Source: Thermoplasmata archaeon (GTDB lineage Archaea; Thermoplasmatota; Thermoplasmata; Thermoplasmatales; GCA-001856825). From it: 64,000 nucleotides of DNA. The position numbers were made by a program, and so were the translations under genes. The notes below the pieces were generated by a model. That model ran no database searches. It was not told where the DNA came from and worked only from the letters and a program-made list of their open reading frames with translations. Positions 7,157-29,725 of this stretch are shown piece by piece (positions within the stretch are counted from its first letter, which is position 1; each line of letters opens with the position of its first letter). The DNA lies in assembly GCA_021797915.1 (NCBI GenBank), contig JAJZYT010000005.1, positions 10,043 to 74,042 of the forward strand. Reading direction: 5' to 3'.

Positions 7157-7230
7157 TGAATATTCTCCTCTTGTCTATAAGAACTTTAATCTCTTTCCCT
7201 ATTAATATTTCTTTGCTTACAATTTCTAAA

Positions 7231-7305
7231 CGGGCCCGCGGGGATTTGAACCCCGGATCATTGGCTTAGAAGGCCAATGCCTTATCCAGACTAGGCCACG
7301 GGCCC
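7231..7305 (-). tRNA. tRNA-Arg (anticodon TCT)
   Basis: The reverse complement folds as a cloverleaf: GGGCCCG acceptor, anticodon stem TTGGC/GCCAA with loop CTTCTAA, and T-arm CGGGG-TTCAAAT-CCCCG. No CCA is encoded. Confidence 0.9.
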
Positions 7306-7428
7306 ATGTTTGGCTCCAATGGAAATGGCTAGCGTATTATTATTTTTTTGCAGACTCTCTTGAGAGGTATTCCCTTCAATTCCTTTCTGCATCGTTTGGT
7401 TTTATAAGGTTCGTATGATTTCGTTCAG

Positions 7429-8019: not shown

Positions 8020-8390
8020 TCTCTAATTCCGAAACATCGGTGAATGATATATACTGAGAGTAAATTTAGAGATGGTAGTCCCAGGATGGCCATCGCCAGA
8101 AATGGTGAGGAAAGTCCTCCCTCCAGGTAGCAATCTGGATAAAACCCTGGTCGAGAGACCTGCTTCGCCTCAAAAGAAATGACACAGCTTCGGTTAAGGA
8201 TGAACCTCTCGGAGGGGACGTTCCCGAAAAATATGATGAGACAGAGGAGGAGAGATAGGAGCAAGCTCAAGCAGTTCCGAAGACAGCTATCACAGGAACA
8301 GGTAGAGCGCACGAGTCAAATGCCATCAACCCGGAAGGGGTAACAGAAGGAGGCTTACTCGGGACAACCTCTACTTTCCAGACCGGAGCT

Positions 8391-15350: not shown

Positions 15351-15737
15351 ATGAAAGAGGAGAAGAGAGGAAGAACCTTCAAAGGATTCATTTCACTTAT
15401 AGTGTTGAGGGCACTCTGGAATGAACCTGGTTATGGATATAACCTGGAAAAAGAAATCAATCGGGGACTGGGGGTGAAACTCTCAAACGGTGAAATCTAC
15501 TCAGTTTTGAGGAACATGGAGATAAGGGGACTGATAAAGTACAAGGGAAAACGTCAGGAAGGGAAAAACAGGAAGTATTACGAAATAAGCAGCGAGGGCA
15601 AGCAGTATCTCCAGGAACAGGCAAAGAATATGGAAGTAGCATTGCCCACAATAGAAGAGATCATAGGATTTGTAAATTCAAATTCAGACAGAGGAAAAGA
15701 AGGATCTGAATTGGCACCCTCTTGCAAAAACGAATGA
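15351..15737 (+). CDS. PadR-family transcriptional regulator
   Basis: LIVLRALWNEPGYGYNLEKEI...GEIYSVLRNMEIRGLI winged-helix typical of PadR. Confidence 0.85.
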   Translation: MKEEKRGRTFKGFISLIVLRALWNEPGYGYNLEKEINRGLGVKLSNGEIYSVLRNMEIRGLIKYKGKRQEGKNRKYYEISSEGKQYLQEQAKNMEVALPTIEEIIGFVNSNSDRGKEGSELAPSCKNE

Positions 15738-16681
15738 AATATATAAAAGCAGTGAATTCTAAACTTGTGAATCAAACAGTTTTGTTCTACGGTGATGAAG
15801 ACATCCTTAAGTCTCTCGCGAAAAAGGGATCTGAGACGGATATAAGATTCTACAATACCAAGATATCCGGTAACGAAATTACGTTTCTCTATCCATTCAA
15901 ATTCCCAGAGAGAATACAGACGCTACTTAATGCTGCGTCTGTTTCAAATAAGGCAATTCTGGCGGTGAATGAACTAGACAAGAGTGTAGGGGAATTCCTT
16001 CTCACGCTTGATTATCAAGGGATAAAGAATCTTGGTGTAATAGCGGCACCGCAGGTGTTGGAACACATACAAAAGATAGCAGGCGCGATGGGAATCTCTG
16101 TTGACGCCATGAGCCAAAAGTACGAAGATGTCGAAAGATTTTCACTTCTCCCAGTGACTCCACCAAAGCAGGAAAACCTAGTCGTGTTGGACCAGAGCTT
16201 CCAAGTGAAAGGAGTTGGCACTGTCAGCCTTGGCTTCTTATTGGGAGGTCAAATCAAGAAACACATGGTCATGAGAGCATACCCTTCCGGCAAGACGGTA
16301 GATATAAAAAGCATACAAATAATGGACGTCGACATGGAAACGGCAGAACCATTCTCAAGGGTAGGACTTGCCTACAGGAACGTCGAGGTGGATGATGTGC
16401 CAAAGGGTACCATTCTCTACTCCAGAGAAGGGGTAGAATTCACTGAGAGTATACAGCTTGAAGTCAGGACAAATCCAACGGTGAAAGTAGTGCCCTCCGT
16501 TGGGGAAAAGATCCAACTGAACTTCCTTTTCAACAACATCAATGCTGAAATATCTGACATCTCAGAAGGAAAATATCTGATAGATGTCGACAAAAAGGTA
16601 CCTATAATAGACGAAATATTCTCGATAACTTCTCTCAACTCTAGTCCGAGAGTAATAGGAGCTGGGAAACCTGGAAATTGA
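15734..16681 (+). CDS. EF-Tu/SelB-like translation-factor paralog with a degenerate G domain
   Basis: Its ATG overlaps the PadR stop (ATGA at 15734-15737). It has an EF-Tu domain II-like block (VLDQSFQVKGVGTVSLGFLLGGQIKK), but YGDEDILKS sits where the GxxxxGK(S/T) P-loop is expected. Confidence 0.6.
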   Translation: MKYIKAVNSKLVNQTVLFYGDEDILKSLAKKGSETDIRFYNTKISGNEITFLYPFKFPERIQTLLNAASVSNKAILAVNELDKSVGEFLLTLDYQGIKNLGVIAAPQVLEHIQKIAGAMGISVDAMSQKYEDVERFSLLPVTPPKQENLVVLDQSFQVKGVGTVSLGFLLGGQIKKHMVMRAYPSGKTVDIKSIQIMDVDMETAEPFSRVGLAYRNVEVDDVPKGTILYSREGVEFTESIQLEVRTNPTVKVVPSVGEKIQLNFLFNNINAEISDISEGKYLIDVDKKVPIIDEIFSITSLNSSPRVIGAGKPGN

Positions 16682-16898
16682 AGTCAGGTTAAAGCTGAAA
16701 GGAACCGAGGTAGACAACATCATAAGGGCAATAAATGCGGATCACTCGAGATACATAAAGTGTAAGAAGACGAAAGATGGGTATTCATGTTCCGTGACAG
16801 GTCAAACGAACGACGTGAGGAAGACCATCAACGAGTTCTTGGAATCTATCTTATACCTAGAAAAGGTATCCGAAAGCCTTGATGCCCGAGTGGGGTAG
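16671..16898 (+). CDS. Pcc1-like (KEOPS subunit-like) small ORF, not in the ORF track; the start codon is unresolved
   Basis: The frame is open from 16659 to the TAG at 16896-16898: LEIEVRLKLKGTEVDNIIRAINADHSRYIKCKKTKDGYSCSVTGQTNDVRKTINEFLESILYLEKV. This beta-alpha-beta-beta-alpha pattern resembles archaeal Pcc1. There is no in-frame ATG/GTG/TTG near the 5' end. Confidence 0.35.
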   Translation: MEIEVRLKLKGTEVDNIIRAINADHSRYIKCKKTKDGYSCSVTGQTNDVRKTINEFLESILYLEKVSESLDARVG

Positions 16899-16958
16899 TT
16901 TGGATTATCCTAGAGGCCTGCGGAGCCTCAGACCTGGGTTCGAATCCCAGCTCGGGCG
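16884..16958 (+). tRNA. tRNA-Arg (anticodon GCG)
   Basis: Acceptor GCCCGAG/CTCGGGC, anticodon stem GAGGC/GCCTC with loop CTGCGGA, and T-arm CTGGG-TTCGAAT-CCCAG. No CCA is encoded. Confidence 0.85.
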
Positions 16959-17181
16959 TCCCACCTTGATCCTGATCTTCCGGAAAACCAAACCAGAACC
17001 GGTAGAAGAGAGTAACCTTATTTTGAAGAACCTCAACAGTCAGAATTATTTGCTTTCAATTGGTGCGCTCTGTAAACAAGAATTGGGACCGTCATTGAAG
17101 GAGCATATCCACGAATGAATAAATGGAATGCATTGCGAATGAAGGTTCCAGAAAACTCCAGAATTCAAGGTCTCTCAACAA

Positions 17182-18144
17182 CTACCTTCCGACAGATATC
17201 ACAATTGTGTCTCCCCTTGAGACTTTTTCAAAAACTGCAGATACTGTGACCGTGCCTGACTCGGACCCTGTCCTCTTAACAATCAACGGATCAATGACTT
17301 TAAATCCATCCATCATCCTTTTCTTGACTTCAGCGTCAGTTCCTCTTTGAACCACACAGTATATCTTCAGGAAGTCCACGTTAGAAGAAATGAGCAGCTT
17401 AATTGGATCTTTATCAAATTGATAACGGTAATTCAAGAAGAGATTCTTTTCGTCCATTTTATGCAGCGGTTTATTCAAAGTAATTGTGAGTCCTGTCTGT
17501 CCTGCAAAGGAGTATACAATGTTTTCCTTCGACAAAGGGATACTTCCAGTCTCATCGAAGGCAATCAAATTTATCTGATCAGGAGAATCAACGACTCCAA
17601 CTGGAAGTGGCAGAGGCATCCCAGTTACAATTTTAAGCCCTGAATTTACAACGTGGGCGAATACTGCAACAGAAGGTACCTCTTTAGTGAAATCGAAAGC
17701 TACGGACATCGTGCTCACCTTCGTGTCTTGTGCGGATGGGTCTTCTGTTTTCCTACTATAGTAGTATGAACTTCCTTCTGTCCTTCGGTTGATGAGATCG
17801 AGTTTCAATAGCTTCTTGATGTTCCTGTGGATTGTAGTAGGACCTATCGGTCTGCCATAGACATTTTCGAGCATTGACTTTATATCTTTGAACCTAAATT
17901 CCTTCCCATTCATTCTCTTGTAAACGATCTCCTGAAGAGAATCTGCGATGGAATTGTTTGAGATTGAATTAAGTCGACTGTCATATCCAATGACAACATC
18001 TTTTCTAAAAAAGTGCGACGTGCCGTCTGAATGAATGAATCGAGCATAATGGTAAGTTTTTCCCTTGGACTTTGTGACATAATTTATCTTTCTCGCCTGC
18101 CCGCCGCACACTTGGCACTCGCTTTGAATGGATTTTCGGCCCAT
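17182..18144 (-). CDS. Cassette 1, protein B: CCHH zinc-knuckle + winged-helix-like + beta-rich C-terminal domain; family unknown
   Basis: CQVCGG..x..FIHSDGTSHFF, then FRFKDIKSMLE..TIHRNIKKLLKLDLINRR. It aligns end to end with 29726-30658. Confidence 0.75.
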   Translation of the reverse strand: MGRKSIQSECQVCGGQARKINYVTKSKGKTYHYARFIHSDGTSHFFRKDVVIGYDSRLNSISNNSIADSLQEIVYKRMNGKEFRFKDIKSMLENVYGRPIGPTTIHRNIKKLLKLDLINRRTEGSSYYYSRKTEDPSAQDTKVSTMSVAFDFTKEVPSVAVFAHVVNSGLKIVTGMPLPLPVGVVDSPDQINLIAFDETGSIPLSKENIVYSFAGQTGLTITLNKPLHKMDEKNLFLNYRYQFDKDPIKLLISSNVDFLKIYCVVQRGTDAEVKKRMMDGFKVIDPLIVKRTGSESGTVTVSAVFEKVSRGDTIVISVGR

Positions 18145-18189
18145 CTGACTGTCAATTATTTCCTCAGATATTCAACTTTCTATTTCAAA

Positions 18190-19161
18190 TCATACGACTG
18201 ACTTATCGAGAGTCCACTTGAGCTGCAGGACCGAAAATGCCTCTACGTCTCTTAATGAAATGCTGTGAATATACTTCCATTTTGGGGATTCACTCTCCGC
18301 CAAGCGATTCGTAAGGTCTTGGGTTTCATTTCTGGAGGAAGAGGTTAAGGACGCAATCAAATTGATCGGGTTGTTACCAGAAATGGTAAAATCAAGTCTC
18401 GTCATGTTAGTGGCCGACCAAATTGCGAAGTTCTGTTTCGTTTCTGGGACATAATATTCAATTCTCATTTTTCTTCTCTCTCCTGGCAAGAGGGGAATTG
18501 GGAATCTCATAAGCACCCTCTTCTCCAGAGGAGTATCTTCAAGAAGAGTTACTTTTAGATCCTTCGAATTAGAAAAGTCGAATGCCTTGTATTTCAATTC
18601 TGTGAAAGTTATACCAGTATCCGCAGTAATTCTGAATGGCATAAAGGAAATAGACCATGCGTGATCATTCCTAATCTCATACGAAAACGAGTGCTTTCTG
18701 AACATGCCGTCATTTAGTACATCTCCTAGGAAAATTTCAATTGTATCGAATACGAAGCTAAGTCTTTTCTTATCCATAGTATTGATATAAAAAAGACTCC
18801 TCCCTCTCTTTTGCTTCTCTACTATTCCTGCTTTTTCTAATTTGTCTAGCGCATACTGTATTGAAGTGAATCCTAAGTTTGAATATTTTTGAGCAAGATA
18901 TTTTCTAACGTCGATTATTTGAAAGTCTCCGGAATTAAAGGTCTGAGAGTTTAGTAAACCTATTAACGCATCTTCAAGTTCTCCCTTTTTTATCATCCGA
19001 GAACCTGCTGAGTTTATGTTTAAATAATGAACTTTTCCTTCATGATGGTACACTAAGTATTCATAACGATTTCCTTTTCGATTCGTCGTCCAGGAATGAG
19101 TGACCCTCGCTTTGAAACCGCATATGGGACAAACTCCCTCTTCAAAAGAACGCACCATCAA
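18190..19161 (-). CDS. Cassette 1, protein A: CCHH zinc-knuckle + winged-helix-like + beta-rich C-terminal domain; family unknown
   Basis: EEGVCPICG..YHHEGKVHY, then ..IQYALDKLEKAGIVEKQKRGRSLFY. It aligns end to end with 28712-29668. Confidence 0.75.
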   Translation of the reverse strand: MMVRSFEEGVCPICGFKARVTHSWTTNRKGNRYEYLVYHHEGKVHYLNINSAGSRMIKKGELEDALIGLLNSQTFNSGDFQIIDVRKYLAQKYSNLGFTSIQYALDKLEKAGIVEKQKRGRSLFYINTMDKKRLSFVFDTIEIFLGDVLNDGMFRKHSFSYEIRNDHAWSISFMPFRITADTGITFTELKYKAFDFSNSKDLKVTLLEDTPLEKRVLMRFPIPLLPGERRKMRIEYYVPETKQNFAIWSATNMTRLDFTISGNNPINLIASLTSSSRNETQDLTNRLAESESPKWKYIHSISLRDVEAFSVLQLKWTLDKSVV

Positions 19162-19224
19162 ACGATATTAACATATAGTATAAAAATTAGAAAAAATGTA
19201 GGATAGTTAGAAAGAATGATTGGT

Positions 19225-19320
19225 CTATCCGCCACCAAAGCTTGCCCCGCTCAAAGCATGGGCAATTGCGAAGTAAGCGACGCTTCCAAAAGCAATCACC
19301 AAAGATATCAGTTCAAACAT
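19225..19320 (-). CDS. Cassette 1 micropeptide: 31 aa, single TM helix, C-terminal GGG (not in the ORF track as such)
   Basis: MFELISLVIAFGSVAYFAIAHALSGASFGGG*. A G-rich SD-like GGGGG lies ~9 nt upstream of the ATG. A positional and compositional counterpart is at 28555-28656. Confidence 0.5.
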   Translation of the reverse strand: MFELISLVIAFGSVAYFAIAHALSGASFGGG

Positions 19321-19371
19321 TTTTATTCCCCCTATATGACAATTCTCATTACCTATTTCGACACTTCTACA

Positions 19372-19393
19372 GAGTTCGAAAGTTTTCGAACTC
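19372..19393. promoter_or_regulatory. Cassette 1 palindromic operator candidate
   Basis: GAGTTCGAAA-gt-TTTCGAACTC, with 10-bp perfect arms, lies 52 nt upstream of the micropeptide ATG. It matches the cassette 2 site with compensatory arm changes. Confidence 0.55.
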
Positions 19394-19477
19394 TCTAATA
19401 ATGTTGAATTACCCCCCACGAATATTGAAAAGAAATGGAATCTGACCCCTCAAGTACGATAGCTGGACTACGAGGGA

Positions 19478-19675
19478 CCGCGCAGCAAGAGTATGAGGTA
19501 TCAAGGAATGGTAATATAGCTGCATTAGCGGTAGGAGAGGATCTAGGGCTTGGGAAAGGCATCTGTCGCGGGAACTTATCCCCCTCCCACGACGGAATGC
19601 CTACCCATAACTTGTGGTCTAATAGCAATAGTCTCAAGAAGCTAAGTTGGACTATGGTTTTAGACTTAAGGGTAG
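19478..19675 (+). ncRNA. Candidate structured RNA segment inside the cassette 1 spacer (strand uncertain)
   Basis: Nested helices by eye: 19601-06/19670-75 (CTACCC/GGGTAG), 19617-22/19660-65 (GTCTAA/TTAGAC) and 19628-33/19650-55 (ATAGTC/GACTAT). Also 19478-86 pairs with 19519-31, and 19558-68 with 19590-601. Long ORFs on both strands suggest the lack of stops is compositional. Confidence 0.2.
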
Positions 19676-19852
19676 CTTGGGAAATGTCAAACCCTACCGG
19701 TTTAGCGGATAAAACGAGAATAAAATCAAAACCGTTTATCGTCAAGCCCATGAAAGGTGTAGAAAGAAGCGATTTGATATACCAAAATTTTAAGACTGGG
19801 GAGGTTGGGTCAAGGGACCTGGAATTGCGGAATACAAAGGAGGAAAGAGAAC

Positions 19853-20287
19853 TTGGCAATTGACGAAGTAGTGTTTGCAAATCGTAAACTGCTGAGAGTA
19901 CTGGGAGAGGATAACGAAAGATATAAAGATGACACGAAACTCATGGTTTCGCTGCACAGCATCGAGTTCAGTCATAGAAAAGAAGGCTATCTAGAAGTTG
20001 CAAATGACGTGTTCTTTTCAAACCTCATTTATTTACTGTACATTAAGAAAATAGTTGCTGGAGCGGACCTTGAGACCGCTAAAGAAAAGAACAAGTCTGT
20101 CTTGATCAAAGAACTAGAAAGGAAGAAATCCTTGGTTCTGAAAAGGTCCTCTGTTCGTTCTACAGATGCTCTTGACTGCGGGAAAACTGACAGAAAACTG
20201 GTACTGTTAAATAAGGCGATTTTCATCCTGAAGCGAGATGAGAAAGAAACTGCATTTGGCGGCTTTGATTTTTCCAGGATAGTTTAG
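19853..20287 (+). CDS. Cassette 1, protein X: helical ~144 aa protein of unknown family
   Basis: A TTG start at 19853 is preceded by AGGAGG at 19839-19844. It is paralogous to 27633-28040 (VANDVFFSNLIYLLYIKK versus VARNIFISGLPYMLYFKN; ETAKEKNKSVLIKELE versus EKAKEIAKKVLIKHIE). Confidence 0.6.
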   Translation: MAIDEVVFANRKLLRVLGEDNERYKDDTKLMVSLHSIEFSHRKEGYLEVANDVFFSNLIYLLYIKKIVAGADLETAKEKNKSVLIKELERKKSLVLKRSSVRSTDALDCGKTDRKLVLLNKAIFILKRDEKETAFGGFDFSRIV

Positions 20288-20442
20288 ATTTGACTCAATA
20301 GAACTGTATTTTCTGTGCTTATGCATTGTACTCAATCGGCTTTTCTCTAACTCAATGCAGTCCAGGGGGGTCAATCATTTATTTAGATTCAAATCTATGA
20401 GCTGAGCTGGCTTTCAGTAGCTTAAATTGTGGTCAATATCAG

Positions 20443-21210
20443 CTAGCCTTGACCAATCTTCAGTGCAGCTGTCTTGATCTCCATTATTACTTCTTTGACA
20501 AGCTTCCTTGATTTCTCAAGTTGTACAGATTTGGCTGATACCTCCACCTCAAGGCAAGATTCCCCTTTTTTGCTCAACATCGGATGTGATTTGATGTATA
20601 CTCCCCCATCGTACTTTTTCATAATAGCTGTGATATAAGGAGCTAGAGTTGCCTCAAATACTCCCTTTAATAATACGGACTCCTCAAAATGGAAACTGTC
20701 TTTCAGTTTGATTTCTTCCTCTATGAGTTTTAGCATTGACCGCATTTCCGCAGGCACACCTGGCAGAATGTATATTTTAGTATTTCCAACAACATGGAAG
20801 ATGCCCGGTGCAGAACCTAACTCGTTTTTAACTATCCTCGAGCCTTTGGGTATCAAAGCCATTTTTTCCCTTTCTTTGGACATTTCATGACTCCTACTAT
20901 CAGCTCTGCTCTTTATGATATTATATACTCCTTCATCCAATACCAAAGAAATTTTGAACTCTTCAGCAAACGATGAAACTGTCATGTCGTCAAATGTGGG
21001 CCCAAGTCCACCTGAAGAAACAATGACATCGCACTTCCCTATCAGGGATCTGAACCCTTCTCCAATTTCTTCTTTCACGTCCGGGACAGTCAAAACTCTG
21101 TAGACCTCATAACCCGAAAAGTAGAGAAAACGGCCTATTTCAGCCGCATTCGTGTTCACCGTTTTTCCTTTCAGAATCTCATTTCCTATAGTAAGTATAC
21201 AAGCCCTCAT
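20443..21210 (-). CDS. CinA-like / MoCF-biosynthesis (MoaB/MogA-fold) domain protein
   Basis: MRACILTIGNEILKGKTVNTNAAEIG...SSGGLGPTFDD. Confidence 0.8.
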   Translation of the reverse strand: MRACILTIGNEILKGKTVNTNAAEIGRFLYFSGYEVYRVLTVPDVKEEIGEGFRSLIGKCDVIVSSGGLGPTFDDMTVSSFAEEFKISLVLDEGVYNIIKSRADSRSHEMSKEREKMALIPKGSRIVKNELGSAPGIFHVVGNTKIYILPGVPAEMRSMLKLIEEEIKLKDSFHFEESVLLKGVFEATLAPYITAIMKKYDGGVYIKSHPMLSKKGESCLEVEVSAKSVQLEKSRKLVKEVIMEIKTAALKIGQG

Positions 21211-21397
21211 TATCTCGATATATTTAGCAGAAAGATATTGGTTTCTGTATTTCGAAACTGCACAGAAGCACGAATCTTGCTAATTTTGTTTATAGGGTTC
21301 CTTTTCCAGTCCACAGCTCGTTTTTCAATACGTCTATTTTGGATTGTTTAAATACTTTTGAAGTAAAAGTTTTATAACTAAAATAATTCTCTGAGAG

Positions 21398-23119
21398 ATG
21401 GAATACAAATGGACAGTTTTGGTTAACACAACTCTAGGCGGTTTGATGGGGGCCATAAACATGACTATCGTTCTTATTTCCCTGCCCACAATTTTCAGGG
21501 GTTTGAATATAGATCCTACCGCACCCGGAGAGTTCATAATGCTGCTCTGGGTGATGATGGGGTATAGCATCGTTCTTGCGACCTTGCTTGTGACCTTCGG
21601 GAGGCTCTCTGACTTATACGGTAGAACAAGATTGTACACACTAGGCTTTGTGATCTTCACCTTTGGATCTATCCTGCTATCAATAATCCCGGACGGATCT
21701 GGTAACAACGGTGCAAAAATGTTGATAGGTTTCAGAATGGTGCAGGGTGTTGGCGGTGGACTACTCATGGTCAACAGTACTGCGCTCATCACCGATTCAT
21801 TTGGTCCGAACGAAAGAGGCCGCGCACTAGGAATAAATCAAATATCATTCATTGCAGGTTCACTGATTGGTCTTATAGCTGGAGGGCTGCTAGCTTCAAG
21901 CAACTGGCATTTGGTTTTCATTGTCAACATTCCATTTGCAGTAGCAGGGTCATTATGGTCTGTGTTCAAACTCAAAGCGATCCCGAAGAAAGTGAAGGTA
22001 CCAATGGACATAGCAGGTAACGTTGCCCTTGGCGGTGGACTGGTGCTTATTAGTCTTGGCTTCACCTATGCACTGGTTCCATATGGAAATTCATCTATGG
22101 GTTGGGGAAGCCCCTGGGTCCTCGCATCGTTTGTTGTGGGAGTCGTTCTGCTTGTTACCTTCGTCTTTCTAGAATTAAAAGTCAAGCAGCCGTTATTCGA
22201 TCTGCGTTTATTCGAGATTCGCGCGTTCAGTTACGGAAATTTTGCAAATTTCGTTTCATCTCTAGGAAGGGGAGCTATCATGTTTCTTGTAATTATTTGG
22301 CTCCAAGGAATTTATCTTCCACTTCACGGTTTTTCATACTCCTCCACTCCATTCTGGGCTGGAATCTACATGCTCCCGTTGATGGTTGGTTTCATAGTCC
22401 TGGGACCTATCGGGGGAATTCTCACGGACAAATATGGAGCTCGAGTCTTTGCCACCACAGGTATGATTATTACAGCCATTTCGCTGTATCTCTTGACCCT
22501 TCTCCCGTACAACTTCAATTTGTGGCAGTTTGAGGGAATTCTTTTGATGAATGGGATTGGAAGTGGGCTATTCGCAGCCCCGAATACTACAGCAGTCATG
22601 AACTCTCTGCCGGAAGAAAGCAGGGGAGCTGGAAGCGGTATGAGAACTACATTCAACAATATAGGTCAGACTATAAGCATGGCAATATTCTTTTCAGTCG
22701 CCATTTCGATTTTCTCACTGAAACTACCGTCATCCCTGCTTAATACCTCTGTATCAATAGGACTCCCATTACAGATTGCGGTAGCAATCTCGAAAATTCC
22801 TCCATCCGGAGCACTCTTTGCGGCATTCCTGGGAATAAATCCAGCTGCCAGCTTTCCATCTGCAATGTTGAATCTGATACCCCCAACTGCATTGAAGTCT
22901 CTGATGTCACTGTCATTCTTCCCCAATGCTATTGGCCCATCATTCATGGTAGGTTTGAAGGATTCTCTATACATTGCAATTTTGATGACCATAGCTGGCG
23001 CAGTACTGTCTGCCCTCAGTGGTGGAAGATATGTACATGGTGAGGGTTACACTAACGGGAAGAAAGTTACAAAGATCTCCTCTGGAAATCCTGACTCCGG
23101 TCAAAGAGGGCAGAAATGA
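21398..23119 (+). CDS. MFS drug:H+ antiporter, DHA2/EmrB-like (14 TMS)
   Basis: 573 aa. It has the GRLSDLYGRTR motif and 14 hydrophobic spans. Confidence 0.85.
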   Translation: MEYKWTVLVNTTLGGLMGAINMTIVLISLPTIFRGLNIDPTAPGEFIMLLWVMMGYSIVLATLLVTFGRLSDLYGRTRLYTLGFVIFTFGSILLSIIPDGSGNNGAKMLIGFRMVQGVGGGLLMVNSTALITDSFGPNERGRALGINQISFIAGSLIGLIAGGLLASSNWHLVFIVNIPFAVAGSLWSVFKLKAIPKKVKVPMDIAGNVALGGGLVLISLGFTYALVPYGNSSMGWGSPWVLASFVVGVVLLVTFVFLELKVKQPLFDLRLFEIRAFSYGNFANFVSSLGRGAIMFLVIIWLQGIYLPLHGFSYSSTPFWAGIYMLPLMVGFIVLGPIGGILTDKYGARVFATTGMIITAISLYLLTLLPYNFNLWQFEGILLMNGIGSGLFAAPNTTAVMNSLPEESRGAGSGMRTTFNNIGQTISMAIFFSVAISIFSLKLPSSLLNTSVSIGLPLQIAVAISKIPPSGALFAAFLGINPAASFPSAMLNLIPPTALKSLMSLSFFPNAIGPSFMVGLKDSLYIAILMTIAGAVLSALSGGRYVHGEGYTNGKKVTKISSGNPDSGQRGQK

Positions 23120-23550
23120 AGAATGAATATGCTCTCATCCTTGACCAGCTTACTTCAATGAGAAAACTGAGAAAAAAGATATTGGACGACATAAATGCGA
23201 ATCTGAAAGAAATGAACTCTAGAGATTTCATAGTGTTACACAACATATGCAAGAGCATAAAGGAGCCAACAATGAGTGACCTCTCCGAGTCTTCTGGTCT
23301 TTCTAATGCACTCATAACTTCGTCCATCGATAGTCTTGAGGGCCTCAAGCTCGTGAAGAGGAAAAGGGGACCAGACCGGAGAAGCTATGTCTTGAAACTC
23401 ACAGCTGATGGGATCGCTAAGTGCAAGGAAATGGAGAAATTGAAGTACAGCAGCATCAACTCCATCTTCAGCAGCATGACTGGTGAAGACATTGCAACCC
23501 TCAAAGAGATTCTAAAAAAGTTGAATGAATTGATGGAGAAGTATACTTGA
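23116..23550 (+). CDS. MarR-family transcriptional regulator
   Basis: ATGA overlap with the MFS gene. Winged helix: ..MSDLSESSGLSNALITSSIDSLEGLKLVKRKRGPDRRSY. Confidence 0.85.
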   Translation: MKNEYALILDQLTSMRKLRKKILDDINANLKEMNSRDFIVLHNICKSIKEPTMSDLSESSGLSNALITSSIDSLEGLKLVKRKRGPDRRSYVLKLTADGIAKCKEMEKLKYSSINSIFSSMTGEDIATLKEILKKLNELMEKYT

Positions 23551-23570
23551 CCTCTGGAGAACTCCTTTCA

Positions 23571-24551
23571 TCAAGATAAAGCGTTTATGAGTGAAGGGAT
23601 TGACTCCTCGTAGAGATATTCCAGCCCGAAGTGTCCTTCGTCAAATTCTTTGTAATCGTGTTTTACTTTGTGCTTATTCATTAGTTCACTCATTCCCTTC
23701 ATTCCAATGTTTATCGAGAATTCGTCTCTGTTACCTACCTGCAGGATCACTTTCTGTTGCCGAAGACTGTCTAAACGATTTTCAAGATTTCGTAGTGGGT
23801 CAAGGAGAAGCCATCTGTTCCAAACGTCCTGTCTGAAGGTATGATATTTTAAGTCGAAAGGCAGGTCGAATCCAATCTTTGACTTATGGTTCGGGGAATA
23901 GAAAGCTGCCATCGCAAGGACATTCATCACACCGAAGTCCAGGTTATCGGGATGAGGCTTTTTATTAAAATATTTCAGAAATTCTTGCGGGTTCATTTTT
24001 TCGAGTTTTGTGATTCCTGAAGCAAAGTCTCTCACGTAACAATACTCGAATCCTGAATCTCCAGAAACATCCACAAATCCACCAAAAACATCAGGATGCT
24101 TTGTTGCAAGATTATAAGAACCAAACCCGCCCGATGATTTTCCAAAAAGACCTATCTTCCTGTTTCCATACTTGCGTTTTATAAGACCCACAACATCATT
24201 CACTATGAAGTCCTCATAATTCCCCACGGCAGAGGAATTGACAAACTGATTGCCGTAGTAAGAGGTCATTGTATCCGGTAAGAGTATAATGAATGAGCTT
24301 GACTTCTTCTCTGAAATAGTTTCGAGAGCTCTGAAGAAATCGTGCCCTGTATATGACCGATTTAAGAAGCTATTTGAGCTCCCAAAAAATCCCGCAAGAC
24401 CGATCAATGCAGGAGTAGATTCTTTAACATTTCTTTCGAGCACGATTATCTCCCGCCTTACTGGGTCTTTTAGGATATTGTCTTTAAGGCTTTTCCCCAC
24501 AATTTCTAACTTCTTTACTTCAAAACGTTTTCTCCCTAAAGTAACGGGCAT
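23571..24551 (-). CDS. Alpha/beta-hydrolase esterase (putative esterase family)
   Basis: GxSxG-type nucleophile elbow GKSSGGFGS. 326 aa. Confidence 0.7.
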   Translation of the reverse strand: MPVTLGRKRFEVKKLEIVGKSLKDNILKDPVRREIIVLERNVKESTPALIGLAGFFGSSNSFLNRSYTGHDFFRALETISEKKSSSFIILLPDTMTSYYGNQFVNSSAVGNYEDFIVNDVVGLIKRKYGNRKIGLFGKSSGGFGSYNLATKHPDVFGGFVDVSGDSGFEYCYVRDFASGITKLEKMNPQEFLKYFNKKPHPDNLDFGVMNVLAMAAFYSPNHKSKIGFDLPFDLKYHTFRQDVWNRWLLLDPLRNLENRLDSLRQQKVILQVGNRDEFSINIGMKGMSELMNKHKVKHDYKEFDEGHFGLEYLYEESIPSLINALS

Positions 24552-24621
24552 GATCCACTATCATTCTGGCGTGAATATCCTTTTCTCACATCGCGTAGGA
24601 GGTGAGAGAGATATTCGGCTG

Positions 24622-25884
24622 CTAGATTATTAATTCTTCCTGATCTACGTTCCTATTCGCGACCCCTAGGTCTGCAACATCGATTTCCACATTCCCGTAA
24701 AGTTTCGCCTTTTCTCTTCCGGAGAATAACGCAGAAGCCAATCTACCTGCTGAATCCGCCTTCATTATGCCACTTCCACTGCTTCCATTTACAACCGAGA
24801 GATTCATGTATTTTTCCAGCACGTATGTTCCATCCATATTGTTCATGGAATAGAAGCCTGCCCAGCTTGCCAGCATGCGTGCGTCGTGAAAGGCTGGTAT
24901 GTATTCTCTTAGGACTGTGTGAAGGTTATTAGAATAATATTCTGCATCAGCGATTGGATCCTCTTCAAGACCGAAAGCTCTTCCTACACCCTCACTGTAC
25001 GATACCCAGAAAGTCTTTGATTTGGGATCAGGTCTAAGGTCAATGGCGGGACCGGGAAGAATAGTGAATGGAAAAATGTCTTCGATTCCGGTAACCCTTC
25101 TTGAAATCATCTTTGAAATCCCGTCACTTTGCAGTTGAAAGACCTGAACTTTTTTAGGTTGTGTGAAGGCATCAATTCCCAGCGGGCTAAGAAGATCACT
25201 GGTCCAGACATCTGTCGCCAGGAGGAACTGATCCGCCGAGATGTCTCCAGCAGACGTGTACAGTGACTCGACCACCTTGTCTTGCCATATGAAAGGCTCA
25301 CCTGGAAAGTTCAACCTGGATCGTGGGGCTAGATTCAACTTTTCCACCTTCGTGTTGAATTTAAACTCTGCTCCCAGTTTATTTAACTGCTGGAAGTAAT
25401 ATGAGGCCAAAAGGTCGGGTTCAAGGATCCCACAATTTTCACCCACTAGACCACCAGAAATATTTCTGAGATTCATTATCTTGCTCGCCTCAGGGTCTGG
25501 TTCAACTTGGATACCAAGATCTGCGATTTCTTCTCTAGTGATTATCTTTGACCTTACTCTCTTTAGAATTTTTTTGACTGCTACCGAATTCAACCTCTCC
25601 TCGTCCATCAAGAACAGGTATCCGTTAGAATGCATTCCGAGATTGAACCCTTTGTCTTGTATATCTTTGTAAAACGAGATCGAAGATGAAGCAAGCTTAT
25701 AATTTGTATCTGAAGTGAAGACGTCCCTGAATGCAGCATCACTCTTCGCAGTATTCCCCTGGGCGTAGGTACTCCATTTGTCAAGAATACAGATTCTCAA
25801 GTCGGGGTTGTCCAACTTGATGTGATAAGCAGATGAGAGCCCTGAAATTCCTGCTCCAACAACGACTAGGTCATACTTCTCCAT
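24622..25884 (-). CDS. FAD-dependent oxidoreductase (DAO family)
   Basis: N-terminal dinucleotide fold YDLVVVGAGISGLSSAY. 420 aa. Confidence 0.8.
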   Translation of the reverse strand: MEKYDLVVVGAGISGLSSAYHIKLDNPDLRICILDKWSTYAQGNTAKSDAAFRDVFTSDTNYKLASSSISFYKDIQDKGFNLGMHSNGYLFLMDEERLNSVAVKKILKRVRSKIITREEIADLGIQVEPDPEASKIMNLRNISGGLVGENCGILEPDLLASYYFQQLNKLGAEFKFNTKVEKLNLAPRSRLNFPGEPFIWQDKVVESLYTSAGDISADQFLLATDVWTSDLLSPLGIDAFTQPKKVQVFQLQSDGISKMISRRVTGIEDIFPFTILPGPAIDLRPDPKSKTFWVSYSEGVGRAFGLEEDPIADAEYYSNNLHTVLREYIPAFHDARMLASWAGFYSMNNMDGTYVLEKYMNLSVVNGSSGSGIMKADSAGRLASALFSGREKAKLYGNVEIDVADLGVANRNVDQEELII

Positions 25885-25950
25885 TTACGAAATGAATTGC
25901 AAACGTTTATTTAACTCTCAGGCAATTGCTGGACTTCTTGGTTTGTTCCA

Positions 25951-26856
25951 TCATAACAGATCCATATTCTTAAGAAGGTGATAGGCAGAAGCGATATCTT
26001 CCAAGCCAATCCCCATTGTCTTGAATATTGTCTTTTTATTTCCTTTATACTTTTGACTTTCTCCAACTACGTCTTTGAACTCAACTGTCTTTCCTCCTTC
26101 GTTTACAAAGTCAGAAATTTCCGAAGATTCCTTGAACGCCTGTTCAAGATGTTCTACTACCACAATATCCGAGCTTCTCATCACAGTTTGTGAAACTTCC
26201 CTGTGAGATAGTACGTTTGCACCTCCAATGTTCAGGTGATAACTTTCAAGAAACGATAGGTCACTTATTAGTGGTTCCTTTGAGGAAGTGATACATGAAA
26301 TAACGTCGGCCCCCTCGAGGACTGATCTCATGTCTTCACTGAAGGAGATATCACAGTGGTACTTTTGTTCCATTTTCTTGACAAACTGTTTTCCATGCTC
26401 GGGAGTACGTGAATACACTCTTATTAGTGAGGGATCGCCTATCTCTAAGATCCCTTCCAGCTGTGTTTCTGCCTGAAATCCAGAGCCAATTAATGAAAAT
26501 ACGGAACATTTGCCATGCAAAATATTAGTTCCAAGTGCAGTGACTGCCCCAGTCCTGACTTGCCCAAGCTTATTGGCCTCTATTACGGCTATCATTTCGG
26601 ACGAAACTGAGTCAAATAACAACACCACAAACCTTGCACCCTCCTTTGTAACAACATAAGTCTTGAACCCCGTAATGTGATATTTGTTCATGTATGCGGG
26701 CATAGTACTTAGCACGCTGGATTCAGAAATAGTGCGATTACGAGAGTCAACTCCCGCAGTATTATTGAAGTATTCCTTAAAGGCATCATTCACTGCATCT
26801 ATTGCCATTTTCATACCAAAGTTTGCTTCAACCTCGTGTTCAGTAATATAATACAT
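25951..26856 (-). CDS. Ornithine cyclodeaminase / mu-crystallin family protein
   Basis: The start is taken at MYYITEHEVE (ATG 26854-26856). Rossmann segment FSLIGSGFQAETQLE. Confidence 0.8.
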   Translation of the reverse strand: MYYITEHEVEANFGMKMAIDAVNDAFKEYFNNTAGVDSRNRTISESSVLSTMPAYMNKYHITGFKTYVVTKEGARFVVLLFDSVSSEMIAVIEANKLGQVRTGAVTALGTNILHGKCSVFSLIGSGFQAETQLEGILEIGDPSLIRVYSRTPEHGKQFVKKMEQKYHCDISFSEDMRSVLEGADVISCITSSKEPLISDLSFLESYHLNIGGANVLSHREVSQTVMRSSDIVVVEHLEQAFKESSEISDFVNEGGKTVEFKDVVGESQKYKGNKKTIFKTMGIGLEDIASAYHLLKNMDLL

Positions 26857-26966
26857 CCAGAGCGTAATTCGTATTCTCTTGATACAATTTACCATAAAGG
26901 CATTTGCAACTTATAGTCGGTGCTATTGGTAATTTGTACTTATTATAAAGACTAAAAATAAGCCAA

Positions 26967-27524
26967 TCAACTTAAAGTGCCGGTTATGGAGCCAATATAT
27001 CCATTGTAAGTAATGTCAATCTGCAGACCTGAAAGTTTCACTGGGGCTCCAGTGGAGTGAAAAACTATGTAAATTATTGCCTGAGATTGGATGTTCGTTG
27101 CACCGTTTGCGGGAATCGCTCCGTTAGAAGACCAAGTGTCTCCGCTGCTCGTGAAAGTGTTCATATAAAGGACTGTCCCATCTGGATTTGTAATTGTAAC
27201 ATTTTCAACTGTCCACCCAACACCGGTGGGTTTGTCACTTCCATTTATCATTTGCATGTGAAATTTTGATGGGTCACTCAGCTTAGAAGGAGTTGCTAAG
27301 TTCAACATTAGCGTTGTCGTATTTGTTCCAAAGGATTCTTCTGTTATGCTTCCAATTAATGGTGAGGGAGTCGTATAGTGTGAGACGAGAATATAAACGG
27401 TTGTTGCCAGTATAACTGTGACTGCAACCATGAGTATAGTGGCGATGACTGGAGATACAGCTTCATCTTCCGCGATTTGAAGTGGCCAAATTTTCTTATG
27501 TGTTTTCCTAACGACATCCTTCAT
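26967..27524 (-). CDS. Archaeal type IV pilin-like protein (class III signal peptide, DUF1628-like N-terminus)
   Basis: ..EDEAVSPVIATILMVAVTVILATTVYILV.., followed by a Thr/Asn-rich beta-type domain. Confidence 0.65.
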   Translation of the reverse strand: MKDVVRKTHKKIWPLQIAEDEAVSPVIATILMVAVTVILATTVYILVSHYTTPSPLIGSITEESFGTNTTTLMLNLATPSKLSDPSKFHMQMINGSDKPTGVGWTVENVTITNPDGTVLYMNTFTSSGDTWSSNGAIPANGATNIQSQAIIYIVFHSTGAPVKLSGLQIDITYNGYIGSITGTLS

Positions 27525-27632: not shown

Positions 27633-28040
27633 TTATGCGCCCCTGAGTATAGTGAGAGCACGTTCGAGTAATTCCAGTCTGATTTCAATACATCTTAATT
27701 CAGTAGGCCCATCGCAGATCAATTCCAAATCTTTGATTCTTTCCCTTCTGTCTTCGATATGCTTTATGAGTACTTTTTTGGCAATCTCTTTGGCCTTTTC
27801 AAAATCATCACTGACACGTCCAATGCTTAGATTCTTGAAGTAAAGCATATATGGAAGCCCTGAAATGAAAATGTTTCGGGCTACTCTATAATAACCCACC
27901 GAGGAATGATCAAATTTCACTTTACTGAAGGAGATTAACAGTTTGAGGTTCTCCCTTTTCCTCCCAGCAGCTCTATTGACTTCAAGGTCATCAAAAAATT
28001 TCGCACTTTCAATGATTTTATTTCTGCACTGCTCTTCCAC
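27633..28040 (-). CDS. Cassette 2, protein X': helical 135 aa paralog of 19853-20287
   Basis: GTG start with an AGAAGG SD-like element upstream. The alignment to X is described under that feature. Confidence 0.6.
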   Translation of the reverse strand: MEEQCRNKIIESAKFFDDLEVNRAAGRKRENLKLLISFSKVKFDHSSVGYYRVARNIFISGLPYMLYFKNLSIGRVSDDFEKAKEIAKKVLIKHIEDRRERIKDLELICDGPTELRCIEIRLELLERALTILRGA

Positions 28041-28331
28041 TTCGAAACCTTCTAATATTATGAATGTTAATATCTTCTAAAATATCAATAATGGATAATC
28101 TCATAAAACCTGATTTACTGAGACTTTCCAGACACGTGTTCTTATTGAAAGATTTTTTGGGTAAGAACATAATAATGAAACGAATTCTGTTAGGCATAGA
28201 TTCTGAAAGTTCTCCTGATTTTCCTGACAATGATATAAAGGCTTGAACTCGTAATTGTCTTTTACCGTGAACATTTGATCATTTGCAGTTTTATTTTCAT
28301 TGTATACGTCATGAGTTCCATCATTAAAGGC

Positions 28332-28358
28332 AGAGAGAGCCCAAATCGGGCTCTCTCT
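28332..28358. other. Perfect 11-bp stem / 5-nt loop hairpin in the cassette 2 spacer
   Basis: AGAGAGAGCCC-aaatc-GGGCTCTCTCT. No T-tract follows on either strand. Confidence 0.6.
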
Positions 28359-28482
28359 TCGATGGCCCCTCCGCTTGAGTGATGAATCAACAGTTCTGCA
28401 TAGACTGCTGAAAGTATTTGCTGTCTTCCCAATCATTACTCTACTATACGTCATACTCTGGTTGGTCTTTAATACCACCAGA

Positions 28483-28503
28483 GAGTTAGAATAACTTTCT
28501 AAC
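28483..28503. promoter_or_regulatory. Cassette 2 palindromic operator candidate
   Basis: AGTTAGAA-taact-TTCTAACT, 10 bp upstream of a TATA box and ~51 nt upstream of the micropeptide ATG. Confidence 0.55.
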
Positions 28504-28513
28504 TTCCCGTTAG

Positions 28514-28521
28514 TATAAAAA
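28514..28521 (+). promoter_or_regulatory. TATA box candidate for the cassette 2 micropeptide/A'/B' transcript
   Basis: TATAAAAA lies 34 nt upstream of the ATG at 28555. A GAGGGAG SD-like element follows. Confidence 0.5.
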
Positions 28522-28554
28522 TATCAGACTGTATTTGTAATTCGAGGGAGAGTA

Positions 28555-28656
28555 ATGATTGAAATATTTACTCTGGCAATCGGACTCGCTTTGAGCGTCT
28601 ATTTTACGTTGATAAACCCCATTATCGAGGGAGGAGTTGCTGCAGGTGGAGGATAA
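28555..28656 (+). CDS. Cassette 2 micropeptide: 33 aa, single TM helix, C-terminal GGG (below the ORF-track cutoff)
   Basis: MIEIFTLAIGLALSVYFTLINPIIEGGVAAGGG*. The SD-like GAGGGAG is 5-11 nt upstream. Confidence 0.5.
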   Translation: MIEIFTLAIGLALSVYFTLINPIIEGGVAAGGG

Positions 28657-28711
28657 GTTCTTCTCTCTTTTTCATTTTCTAACTTTTAATATGCGTTGGG
28701 ATTGTTTGTAG

Positions 28712-29668
28712 ATGACTTATTCTAAAGAAGAGGGGATCTGTCCATTCTGCAAGAGAAAGTCATTCATAACCAGGAAGTGGGTTCTGAACAACTATAAGAC
28801 TAGGTATAGTTACACCATTTATCATCACGATGGGTCCGTCCACTATTCCAATACAACCCCGAATAATGCCAGAACATTCAAGAAGGGGATTATAGAAAAG
28901 GTTTTGATAGAAACCATAAACTCAGAAAATTTCAAAGATGGATTGTTTCTGACGCGGGACATCAAGAAGAGACTCCAAAAGGAGTATCAGGAAATAAGCT
29001 CAGACACTCTTAGAGATAATCTCCACAGGCTAGTTGAGATTGGCATGCTGGAGAAAGTCAGAAAAGGGAGGCAGATCTACTTCCTCAATGCCATATTTAA
29101 GGACAGACTCAGCTATGTTTTCGACTCAGTTAAGTTCTCCCTCGGCGATACAAATGAAGATTCACTATTCAGGAGCCATGTTTCTGTCTATAACATTAGA
29201 AATGACAAAACCTGGCCACTGTATTTTCTGCCGTACCGAATTTTTGGTGATACAGACATTATCTATGATAAAATGAGATTTAAGGCAATTGACTTGACAA
29301 ATAATGAGGACCTAAAGGTTCTACTTATTGAAGACAATCCAAGGGAAAAGAGAATTTTGATAAGACTGAATAGACCTCTCTTCCCGAATGAAAACATGAA
29401 AGTAAGGTTTGATTATGATTGGCAAGAACCTAGGCAGAATTTTGTTTTTACAGCTGCAACTCATATGAACGCATTTGAGATCGTTCTCTCCAGCAACTAT
29501 CCCCTCAAGATTCAGGCATCCCGAACTATTTCTACTATGAACGAGCTCAAGGATCTGTCAAACGAAGTTGTAGGAACCAGGACCAAAAAGTGGAGATTTG
29601 TATATTCCGTGAAGTTGAAATCAATAAGACCATTTTCTGTTCTCCAGTTTAGGTGGAAAAGGACTTGA
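28712..29668 (+). CDS. Cassette 2, protein A': paralog of 18190-19161
   Basis: Matched blocks: EEGICPFCK..YHHDGSVHY; KAIDLTNNEDLKVLLIEDNPREKRILIR versus KAFDFSNSKDLKVTLLEDTPLEKRVLMR; FSVLQFRW versus FSVLQLKW. Confidence 0.75.
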   Translation: MTYSKEEGICPFCKRKSFITRKWVLNNYKTRYSYTIYHHDGSVHYSNTTPNNARTFKKGIIEKVLIETINSENFKDGLFLTRDIKKRLQKEYQEISSDTLRDNLHRLVEIGMLEKVRKGRQIYFLNAIFKDRLSYVFDSVKFSLGDTNEDSLFRSHVSVYNIRNDKTWPLYFLPYRIFGDTDIIYDKMRFKAIDLTNNEDLKVLLIEDNPREKRILIRLNRPLFPNENMKVRFDYDWQEPRQNFVFTAATHMNAFEIVLSSNYPLKIQASRTISTMNELKDLSNEVVGTRTKKWRFVYSVKLKSIRPFSVLQFRWKRT

Positions 29669-29725
29669 AAGTTTTCGAGATATTGTCGGCAACATTCAAT
29701 ATTGTTGGCAAAATGTGTGATTCAG

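Follow-up and report, generated by a model that had tools for sequence, protein, structure and literature searches.

A Conserved Five-Gene Unit of Acid-Loving Thermoplasmata With Paired Putative DNA-Binding Paralogs, a Micropeptide and a Divergent Y-X Gene Pair

Gene Content of the Two Cassettes

A small group of acid-loving archaea carries a conserved, previously unnamed five-gene unit. Here, this unit was analysed in a stretch of 64,000 nucleotides (nt) from a Thermoplasmata archaeon (assembly GCA_021797915.1, contig JAJZYT010000005.1), the whole of which is termed the window and contains two diverged copies, cassettes 1 and 2. In cassette 1, gene B (17182-18144, minus strand) is an open reading frame (ORF) for 320 amino acids (aa) with a predicted C2H2 zinc ribbon, winged helix and beta-sandwich. 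Gene A (18190-19158, minus strand), delimited by its ORF and its homologs, encodes a paralog of B with the same three domains and 322 aa counted from the ATG. The ORF of A opens at a TTG at 19161 (18190-19161 as ORF); since relatives of A start with MVRSF, the likely start is the ATG at 19158. An ORF for a micropeptide of 31 aa, MFELISLVIAFGSVAYFAIAHALSGASFGGG, precedes A (19225-19320, minus strand). On the plus strand, gene Y, an ORF of 142 codons (19435-19863), has a stop that overlaps the start of gene X (19853-20287), for which ORF and alignment indicate a helical protein of 144 aa with a TTG start preceded by AGGAGG. A tRNA-Arg(GCG) gene (16883-16961, plus strand) lies on the other side, beyond B. 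An earlier note on this DNA had listed X, the peptide, A, B, their motifs and the tRNA, and all of these were found where the note placed them. The interval that it called a spacer is the fifth gene, Y.

Cassette 2 displays the same arrangement in the opposite orientation. It comprises X2 (27633-28040, minus strand), a candidate ORF Y2 of 111 aa from a conserved ATG (28101-28436, minus strand) that ends 60 nt before X2, a second micropeptide of 33 aa, MIEIFTLAIGLALSVYFTLINPIIEGGVAAGGG (28555-28656, plus strand), A2 (28712-29668, plus strand) and B2 (29726-30658, plus strand). The ORF of B2 opens at 29702, and its likely start is the ATG at 29726, which gives the conserved MPRK beginning. In pairwise comparison, identity amounted to 40% between A and A2 (E 2e-97), 28% between B and B2 (E 3e-44) and 33% between X and X2 (E 5e-16). 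These similarities, together with the presence of peptide 2, confirm the diverged second copy that had been noted at 27633-30658.

Conservation of the Unit and of Its Chromosomal Site

Fourteen cassette-type loci were compared, 11 of them cassette-1 loci; L019, L020 and L021 are three more distant versions. All 14 loci share this gene order, as do L019, L020 and L021; the unit is conserved across five diverged versions and in every related locus that was read. X lies on the opposite strand, 670-720 bp from A, in every locus with enough flanking sequence, and cassette-1 orthologs with conserved order come from at least nine species of metagenome-assembled genomes (MAGs). Among the distant versions, L020 encodes X, Y, peptide, A and B of 132, 86, 36, 314 and 298 aa, and the corresponding lengths in L021/L022 are 127, 134, 36, 382 and 326 aa; in L019, peptide-A-B is located at a contig end. 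The view that the locus is a functional unit rather than a chance neighbourhood is thus borne out by this order, and a gene-neighbourhood census of the kind the earlier note had proposed demonstrates that peptide-A-B and X co-occur beyond this genome, in Thermoplasmata MAGs.

Eleven loci were found in a set with one genome per GTDB species, all of them in Thermoplasmata MAGs from acidic sites, including I-plasma, and a scan of JGI metagenomes provided one further locus only. A word-indexed search of 5.8 billion proteins found six relatives of A, eight of B and 25 of X, all unnamed, and none of the 25 X homologs carried a Pfam domain. The literature on the acid mine drainage plasma genomes holds no mention of this cluster. 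The five-gene combination is undescribed, although its parts (ribbon, winged helix, sandwich, micropeptide and palindromic operator) are of known kinds. As a separate observation, L012 (CAZFNL010000101.1) is a 2-kb contig with A-B that was deposited as 'uncultured Gammaproteobacteria bacterium', a taxonomic label that is probably a binning error.

In relatives, cassette 1 is situated between a CinA-like (MoCF_biosynth) gene and an EF-Tu-domain-2 gene. The flanking proteins are 65-83% identical to those of the window, whereas A, B and X are only 43-53% identical. Faster divergence than the flanks at the same site indicates that the module evolves faster than its surroundings and is inherited vertically, and the fixed chromosomal site implies that the unit is not mobile.

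Domain Architecture and Paralogy of A and B

The N-terminal 131 aa of A and B share 26% identity in pairwise comparison (E 7e-9), and alignment of the two family profiles by hhalign gave a probability of 98.4% and an E-value of 8.6e-15 over 229 columns. On these sequence comparisons, A and B are true paralogs. Four putative zinc ligands are invariant in each family alignment, namely C11, C14, H40 and H45 in A (C-x2-C...H-x4-H) and C10, C13, H38 and H44 in B (C-x2-C...H-x5-H), and the same four are kept in the distant relatives P0034, P0035, P0038 and P0073; both proteins thus display the pattern of a putative C2H2 metal site with four ligands on two knuckles. AlphaFold2 (AF2) models, with a mean predicted local distance difference test score of 77 for A and 80 for B, consist of four N-terminal strands, a helix-helix-helix-hairpin winged helix and an all-beta domain of about 180 aa. 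The predicted winged helix comprises helices 61-71, 82-89 and 98-110 with strands 114-119 and 122-127 in A, and helices 66-77, 85-96 and 102-114 with strands 118-123 and 126-131 in B, so that in both models three helices are followed by a beta-hairpin wing. The proposal that A and B are paralogs of one three-part architecture is supported by the profile alignment, the models and the invariant ligands. The ratio of nonsynonymous to synonymous substitution rates (dN/dS) is 0.04-0.17 for A and 0.08-0.25 for B.

In a Foldseek comparison with the PDB, the beta domain of A and B matched OST1/ribophorin I, the N-terminal domain (M1-N) that M1 aminopeptidases and LTA4 hydrolase have in common, and the VIT domain of the inter-alpha-inhibitor heavy chain. 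The matches had a probability of 1.0 and E-values of 1e-7 to 1e-4 over about 210-240 aligned columns, the best E being 1.1e-7 for B and 9.3e-6 for A, with a template modelling score of 0.35-0.41 when normalised to the whole query. The modelled C-terminal domains of about 180 aa have an OST1/M1-N/VIT-like fold, a likeness at the level of fold only: the sequences are 8-13% identical, and shared motifs were not seen. The known domains of this fold are extracytoplasmic or located in enzymes, whereas the sandwich of A and B is fused to a cytoplasmic putative DNA-binding module.

A HMMER pass over 1.84 billion cluster representatives with the profile of A matched 75 proteins, about 30 to 40 of which align over most of their length. 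Most of the remainder cover only A positions ~134-268, that is, the sandwich domain. In 7 of the 10 matches scanned, a class III nucleotide cyclase or caspase domain precedes this stretch on the N-terminal side, and its fusions to Guanylate_cyc or Peptidase_C14 domains had E-values of 1e-10 to 1e-7 against 1.84e9 sequences. One relative consists of a winged helix and sandwich without the zinc ribbon. No peptide or X-like neighbour was found in the loci examined around the cyclase-fused, caspase-fused and ribbon-less relatives. It was also observed in the representative library that P0040-P0056, proteins with a class III cyclase or caspase domain, carry at their C-terminus a stretch that matches the first ~130 residues of the A/B sandwich. 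As no Pfam model covers this recurring stretch, it looks like an unnamed input domain, and its attachment to cyclase and caspase effectors suggests that this domain is widespread.

Scans of A, B, X, Y and the cassette-2 paralogs with Pfam, NCBIfam, PADLOC and PHROGs gave only weak matches to winged helix-turn-helix (wHTH) models, and PDB sequence-profile searches for the A and X families gave nothing informative; A, B and X, which the earlier note could not place from sequence alone, thus fall in no characterised family. In Pfam, A had only sub-threshold winged-helix matches, with Penicillinase_R at 21.5 bits against a cut-off of 22.6, and B reached 13 bits with the same model (PF03965), under the cut-off; TrmB (PF01978) scored 13.1 bits against a cut-off of 25.6. 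Membership of the TrmB family was rejected on this sub-threshold score and because the C-terminal fold is a beta-sandwich, not the TrmB effector-binding domain. Membership of the BlaI/MecI/CopY family was likewise rejected, the scores being sub-threshold and no BlaR1/MecR1-type membrane sensor-protease adjoining in the loci read. Regulators of both families resemble A and B in having a winged helix followed by a domain that does not bind DNA, and palindromes at their own promoters, but they are without the N-terminal C2H2 ribbon, the paralog pair and the micropeptide, and their C-terminal fold is different. A and B form a new family of putative regulators that combines zinc ribbon, winged helix and OST1/M1-N/VIT-like sandwich, without a Pfam or NCBIfam model.

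The Micropeptide

Each of the 14 cassette loci has a micropeptide gene, and in the 11 cassette-1 loci read its product is always exactly 31 aa long. The distance from the gene to A downstream is 55-70 nt in all 14 loci and shorter in L019-L021. In cassette 1 of the window, it is preceded at 6 nt by GGGGGA, which resembles a Shine-Dalgarno (SD) sequence. Its coding signature can be seen from the nonsynonymous differences per site (pN), which were fewer than the synonymous ones (pS) in all ten pairs, with 76, 53 and 128 differences at the three codon positions; gene callers also recorded the gene in L001 and L007. The conserved features are an N-terminus M-F-[E/D]-[L/I]-I (MFELI in cassette 1 of the window), a hydrophobic helix of about 19 residues with a mean hydropathy of ~2 over residues 4-22, and a glycine-rich end G-G-x-phi-phi-G-x-G, in which phi denotes a hydrophobic residue. 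Within the window, only two ORFs fit this pattern, the peptides of cassettes 1 and 2. The GGG tail named in the earlier note does not hold across versions: other peptides end in GGA, GSG, GTG, GNG, IFGR or GGGL.

Comparison of the window with the near-identical strain L001 (GCA_027373875.1) displayed about 0.1% divergence over 15500-18900. Over 18900-19300, by contrast, 45 of 400 bases are different; this stretch covers the micropeptide gene together with the first ~90 A codons, and 3 of the 31 peptide residues are changed. It is a strain-level mosaic or hypervariable tract.

Cis-Elements at Fixed Positions

The region from X to A was aligned for the 14 loci and cis-elements were read from this alignment. 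Between the divergent promoters lies a palindromic putative operator, AGAGTTCGAAA-AC-TTTCGAACTCT (19371-19394, minus strand). The palindrome AGTTCGAAAGTTTTCGAACT at 19373-19392 was the one match found, against 0.01 expected. Across the 14 loci its aligned consensus is AAAGTTAGAAA-N-TTTCTAACTTT with arms of 8-14 nt, and in every one of them the distance between its centre and the peptide ATG is 60-62 nt. It is flanked on one side by the TATA-like box of the peptide promoter, TGTCGAAATA (19354-19363, minus strand), a set of conserved columns whose putative role is suggested by position, and on the other by TATA-like sequences for Y on the opposite strand. The box reads TATCGAAATA across the alignment and TATAAAAATA in cassette 2. 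The arms are GTTAG/CTAAC in relatives and change symmetrically to GTTCG/CGAAC in the window and its close relative L008. Cassette 2 has its own palindrome, AGTTAGAA-TAACT-TTCTAACT (28481-28507, plus strand), and a related one, AAAGTTAGAAATATCTAATTTT, is kept in the distant L020.

A second conserved region in the 14-locus alignment is the A-proximal promoter (19172-19213, minus strand), where the half-site TTTCTAAC (and TTTCTAAT) abuts TTTTTATAC, a TATA-like box about 25-30 nt before the start of A. In cassette 2, the half-site TTTCTAAC again stands directly against the TATA-like box of A2 (28675-28693). In the window, TTTCTAACT had five matches against 1.1 expected, three in the cassettes and two inside unrelated coding sequence, and a regulon search of the 64 kb found it in no intergenic region outside the cassettes. 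In the A-B spacer, a conserved TTGAATAT element (18162-18179, minus strand) lies about 30 nt before the ATG of B in all 14 loci and is possibly B's own promoter. Such cassette-specific elements at fixed positions are as expected for sites to which the module's own DNA-binding proteins would bind.

Gene Y as a Leader-Like Frame and Its Relation to X

The interval 19435-19863, previously considered a spacer, is an ORF that is open in all relatives. Y has 138-142 codons and a conserved ATG, with zero in-frame stops in all 11 cassette-1 loci, compared with 5-21 stops in four other frames and 0-6 in the antisense -1 frame; shuffling gave a P of at most 3e-4 per lineage for the open frame. Gene callers also place a gene of ~138 aa in the X-A gap of relatives, and the notion of a non-coding spacer was rejected. 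Y as a normally constrained protein was also rejected: of eight pairs compared, seven gave a dN/dS of 0.45-0.79 and one, the window versus L008, gave 0.27, differences are distributed flatly over the codon positions in those seven pairs, and in a six-frame test the amino-acid identity of its frame was no better than that of the other five. The dN/dS of X is 0.08-0.39, and that of X, A and B together 0.04-0.39.

The invariant patches of Y are constrained at the nucleotide level. RNAalifold placed three hairpins on the sense strand of Y, in which 89.6% of cells are paired, versus 35-45% when the partners were slid, and fifteen pairs are changed on both sides, which 0 of 500 shuffles reach. Hairpin H2 (19558-19601, plus strand), supported by RNAalifold and pair counts, has the invariant loop AUCCCCCU; 6 of its 8 pairs carry changes on both sides, and it is also present in the minimum free energy and centroid folds of the window. 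H3 (19699-19733, plus strand) is an inverted repeat, GGTTTAG-N21-CAAAACC (N21-CTAAACC in relatives), mostly invariant with one compensatory change, and may act at the RNA or DNA level. Hairpin H1 is not conserved in the lineage of the window. Since folding of the whole region is unremarkable on both strands (z -1.0 and -0.9), only the local hairpins are supported. A known non-coding RNA was rejected because Rfam has no match: the sole match of the Y region in Rfam 15 was a chance miRNA (E 0.2), and a gathering run over the full window gave only an RNase P RNA and two tRNAs, all outside the Y region.

The stop of Y and the start of X fall within 1-11 nt of one another. In two lineages (window/L008 and L002/L007), X has a weak TTG start, and its SD sequence is located inside the end of Y. 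Translation of X is thus probably coupled to that of Y, and Y is interpreted as a leader-like ORF that is translated, is coupled to X and bears superimposed RNA signals. The window and L015 have an open Y2 in cassette 2, but in L017 its frame is broken. It was also observed that in L017 (4970-5800, the IK54 MAG) both Y2 and X2 have frame breaks while A2 and B2 are intact; these breaks may be either an assembly error or decay of the Y-X arm. A perfect 11-bp stem, AGAGAGAGCCC-AAATC-GGGCTCTCTCT, occurs at 28332-28358 inside the Y2 region and is conserved in L015 and L017. It occupies the place of the cassette-1 hairpins, and its sequence is unrelated to theirs.

Neighbouring Features

Cassettes 1 and 2 flank a gene block of about 7 kb (20443-26895) that encodes CinA-like, MFS transporter, MarR, esterase, flavin adenine dinucleotide (FAD) oxidoreductase and ornithine cyclodeaminase-like proteins. 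These genes, except for the esterase, are syntenic beside cassette 1 in relatives. Directly after the stop of X, a 22-nt inverted repeat with 77% complementarity (20285-20306 / 20376-20397) is located between the convergent X and CinA-like genes and may be a terminator-like element. Two archaeal type IV pilin genes stand on either side of cassette 2, at 26967-27524 (minus strand) and 31322-32080 (plus strand), and match Pfam Pilin_N with E 3e-6 and 1e-8; the same arrangement is found in L015 and L017. Elsewhere in the window are an archaeal RNase P RNA (RF00373, 151 bits) at 8074-8369 (plus strand) and a tRNA-Arg(TCT) gene at 7230-7306 (minus strand).

Proposed Switch and Alternative Explanations

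It is proposed, at somewhat less than even confidence, that the locus is a vertically inherited, self-contained and autoregulated transcription switch of one clade, built of five genes in two divergent units, Y-X and peptide-A-B. Both A and B would be sequence-specific DNA binders by means of the modelled zinc ribbon and winged helix, and their C-terminal beta-sandwich would serve as an input or partner-binding domain. Probably as a pair, they would occupy the GTTAG/CTAAC palindrome between the back-to-back promoters and also, at the A promoter, the single half-site directly beside the TATA box, thereby regulating the peptide, Y-X and their own production. The peptide of 31 aa would insert in the membrane and be the most likely partner or signal for the sandwich domains; it might, for example, hold A and B at the membrane or release them. 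X would serve as a conserved output or co-factor, translationally coupled to Y, a leader-like ORF with conserved hairpins in its RNA.

Several observations weigh against this proposal. The palindrome of L021, TTTTTTTCA-GAA-TGAAAAAAA, is different; this fits co-evolution of operator and protein but lends no direct support to the switch. The CTAAC motif stands where, at two promoters, the transcription factor B recognition element would be; promoter structure, and not an operator, could thus account for part of its conservation. Finally, the distribution of charge around the helix of the peptide is inconsistent across versions.

One alternative, considered unlikely, is a peptide-pheromone circuit of the quorum-sensing type. 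The micropeptide would be exported, perhaps trimmed, and sensed again by the sandwiches of A and B, which would then switch on the peptide promoter in positive feedback, and Y-X, in the manner of Rgg/SHP or arbitrium. On this improbable account, the cassettes would be archaeal peptide-signalling circuits, each with its own hydrophobic pheromone, paired intracellular receptor transcription factors (TFs) of a new fold combination, and Y-X as output; paralogous, strain-specific 'pherotypes', of equally low probability, would account for three features, namely the diverged duplicate cassettes, the change in the operator and the hypervariable tract that covers the peptide and the N-terminal part of A. 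Rgg/SHP and other RRNPP cassettes of Firmicutes and their phages also place a short hydrophobic peptide gene beside a putative receptor TF gene, and they share with the present unit a palindrome in the divergent promoter, several diverged paralogous cassettes and likely autoregulation. Two or more paralogous cassettes occur per genome, with peptide, proteins and operator all diverged, and the divergence between strains (~11% in the peptide and first ~90 A codons against ~0.1% elsewhere) is pherotype-like. Streptococcal SHPs likewise end in ...VGG. However, the RRNPP receptor consists of XRE-HTH and tetratricopeptide repeats, a fold unrelated to the zinc ribbon, wHTH and all-beta sandwich predicted by AF2, and it is a single TF, whereas two TF paralogs are present here, in an archaeal host. 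Export and import of the peptide would be putative: the module contains no export, processing or import genes and no conserved transporter or protease gene, and neighbouring transporters are not conserved. The peptide is without a basic leader at its N-terminus, conservation is highest there (MFELI) and not in the tail, and the strain-variable part of A is the zinc ribbon rather than the presumed receptor domain. The Y-X pair has no RRNPP counterpart, save for a loose analogy to arbitrium aimX.

A toxin-antitoxin (TA), addiction or defence unit resembling type I is distinctly unlikely. Here, the peptide would be a membrane toxin whose transcription is set by A and B, and the C-rich loop of the Y-X transcript (AUCCCCCU) would pair with the ribosome binding site (RBS) of the peptide, GGGGGAU, and block its translation. 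At 31 aa, the hydrophobic peptide lies within the small size (<60 aa) of type I toxins and matches them as they have been defined (PMC2887945). Systems such as tisB/istR-1 and zorO/orzO likewise combine a hydrophobic peptide of ~30 aa with a divergent transcript complementary to its RBS. The divergent RNA contains the covariation-supported hairpin H2, whose invariant loop AUCCCCC is the exact complement of the RBS core; in L002 and L005 the complements are 8-9 nt long, and the distant L021 has a different one of 9 nt (GGUGAUACA/UGUAUCACC), with P 0.02-0.08 each. Y and X also evolve fast. Nevertheless, complementarity extends over only 7-9 nt, and any C-rich loop complements any SD sequence. 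The match in the window is 7 nt and non-significant, being reached by 361 of 1000 shuffles (P 0.36); cassette 2 and L020 have no complement, and only L005 and L021 reach significance (P 0.02-0.04). Covariation between the H2 loop and the RBS was rejected: duplex energies do not differ between cognate (-17.8 kcal/mol) and non-cognate (-17.6 kcal/mol) pairs, the flanks are without covariation, and significance per locus is weak and inconsistent. In addition, the divergent RNA is an mRNA of two genes, a pair of TFs is always present, the locus keeps its synteny instead of being patchy as most TA and defence islands are, and PADLOC gave no match beyond weak wHTH ones. To our knowledge, type I TA systems have so far been described in bacteria.

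It is quite improbable that A and B are structural DNA-binding proteins, either tethering DNA to the membrane through the peptide or organising chromatin, with the palindromes as loading sites. The occurrence of two putative DNA-binding paralogs alongside a membrane peptide would agree with such a role, as would a sandwich fold typical of protein-protein contacts. Against it, the site-like motifs are confined within the 64 kb to the module's own promoters, no ATPase or partition-type partner is present, and the combination of a DNA-binding domain with a domain found elsewhere beside cyclase and caspase effectors corresponds to a one-component signalling architecture.

A remnant of a virus or integrated element at the tRNA-Arg gene, to which the adjoining tRNA, the small unnamed proteins and a weak likeness of the zinc ribbon to the zinc beta-ribbon of serine integrases (E 0.06; Pfam Zn_ribbon_recom E 0.21) would point, is very improbable and largely refuted by the shared chromosomal site of relatives whose A, B and X are only 43-53% identical, by the lack of a tRNA-derived direct repeat at the locus, an integrase and a patchy distribution among the features of integrated elements (att repeats included), and by scans of IMG/VR with the A and B profiles, which gave no relatives. 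The adjacency to tRNA-Arg is without mobile-element meaning. A viral origin was rejected in particular because BFVD provided only giant-virus versions of the same M1/VIT fold and IMG/VR none; PHROG and BFVD gave no informative match.

Significance

The five-gene module is well supported by comparison and accessible to experiment; it is confined to a small uncultured clade, and the autoregulated switch is its proposed function. If the peptide-signalling or the toxin explanation were true instead, either would be a first for archaea. Gene Y offers a clean case of a frame that stays open despite a drifting protein sequence, with constraint acting on the RNA, which bears on the annotation of small and leader ORFs. 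Archaeal transcription regulators are still poorly catalogued, and the always-paired paralogs, together with the micropeptide and the divergent two-gene unit, provide a compact and testable case of a micropeptide that may be wired into archaeal gene control.

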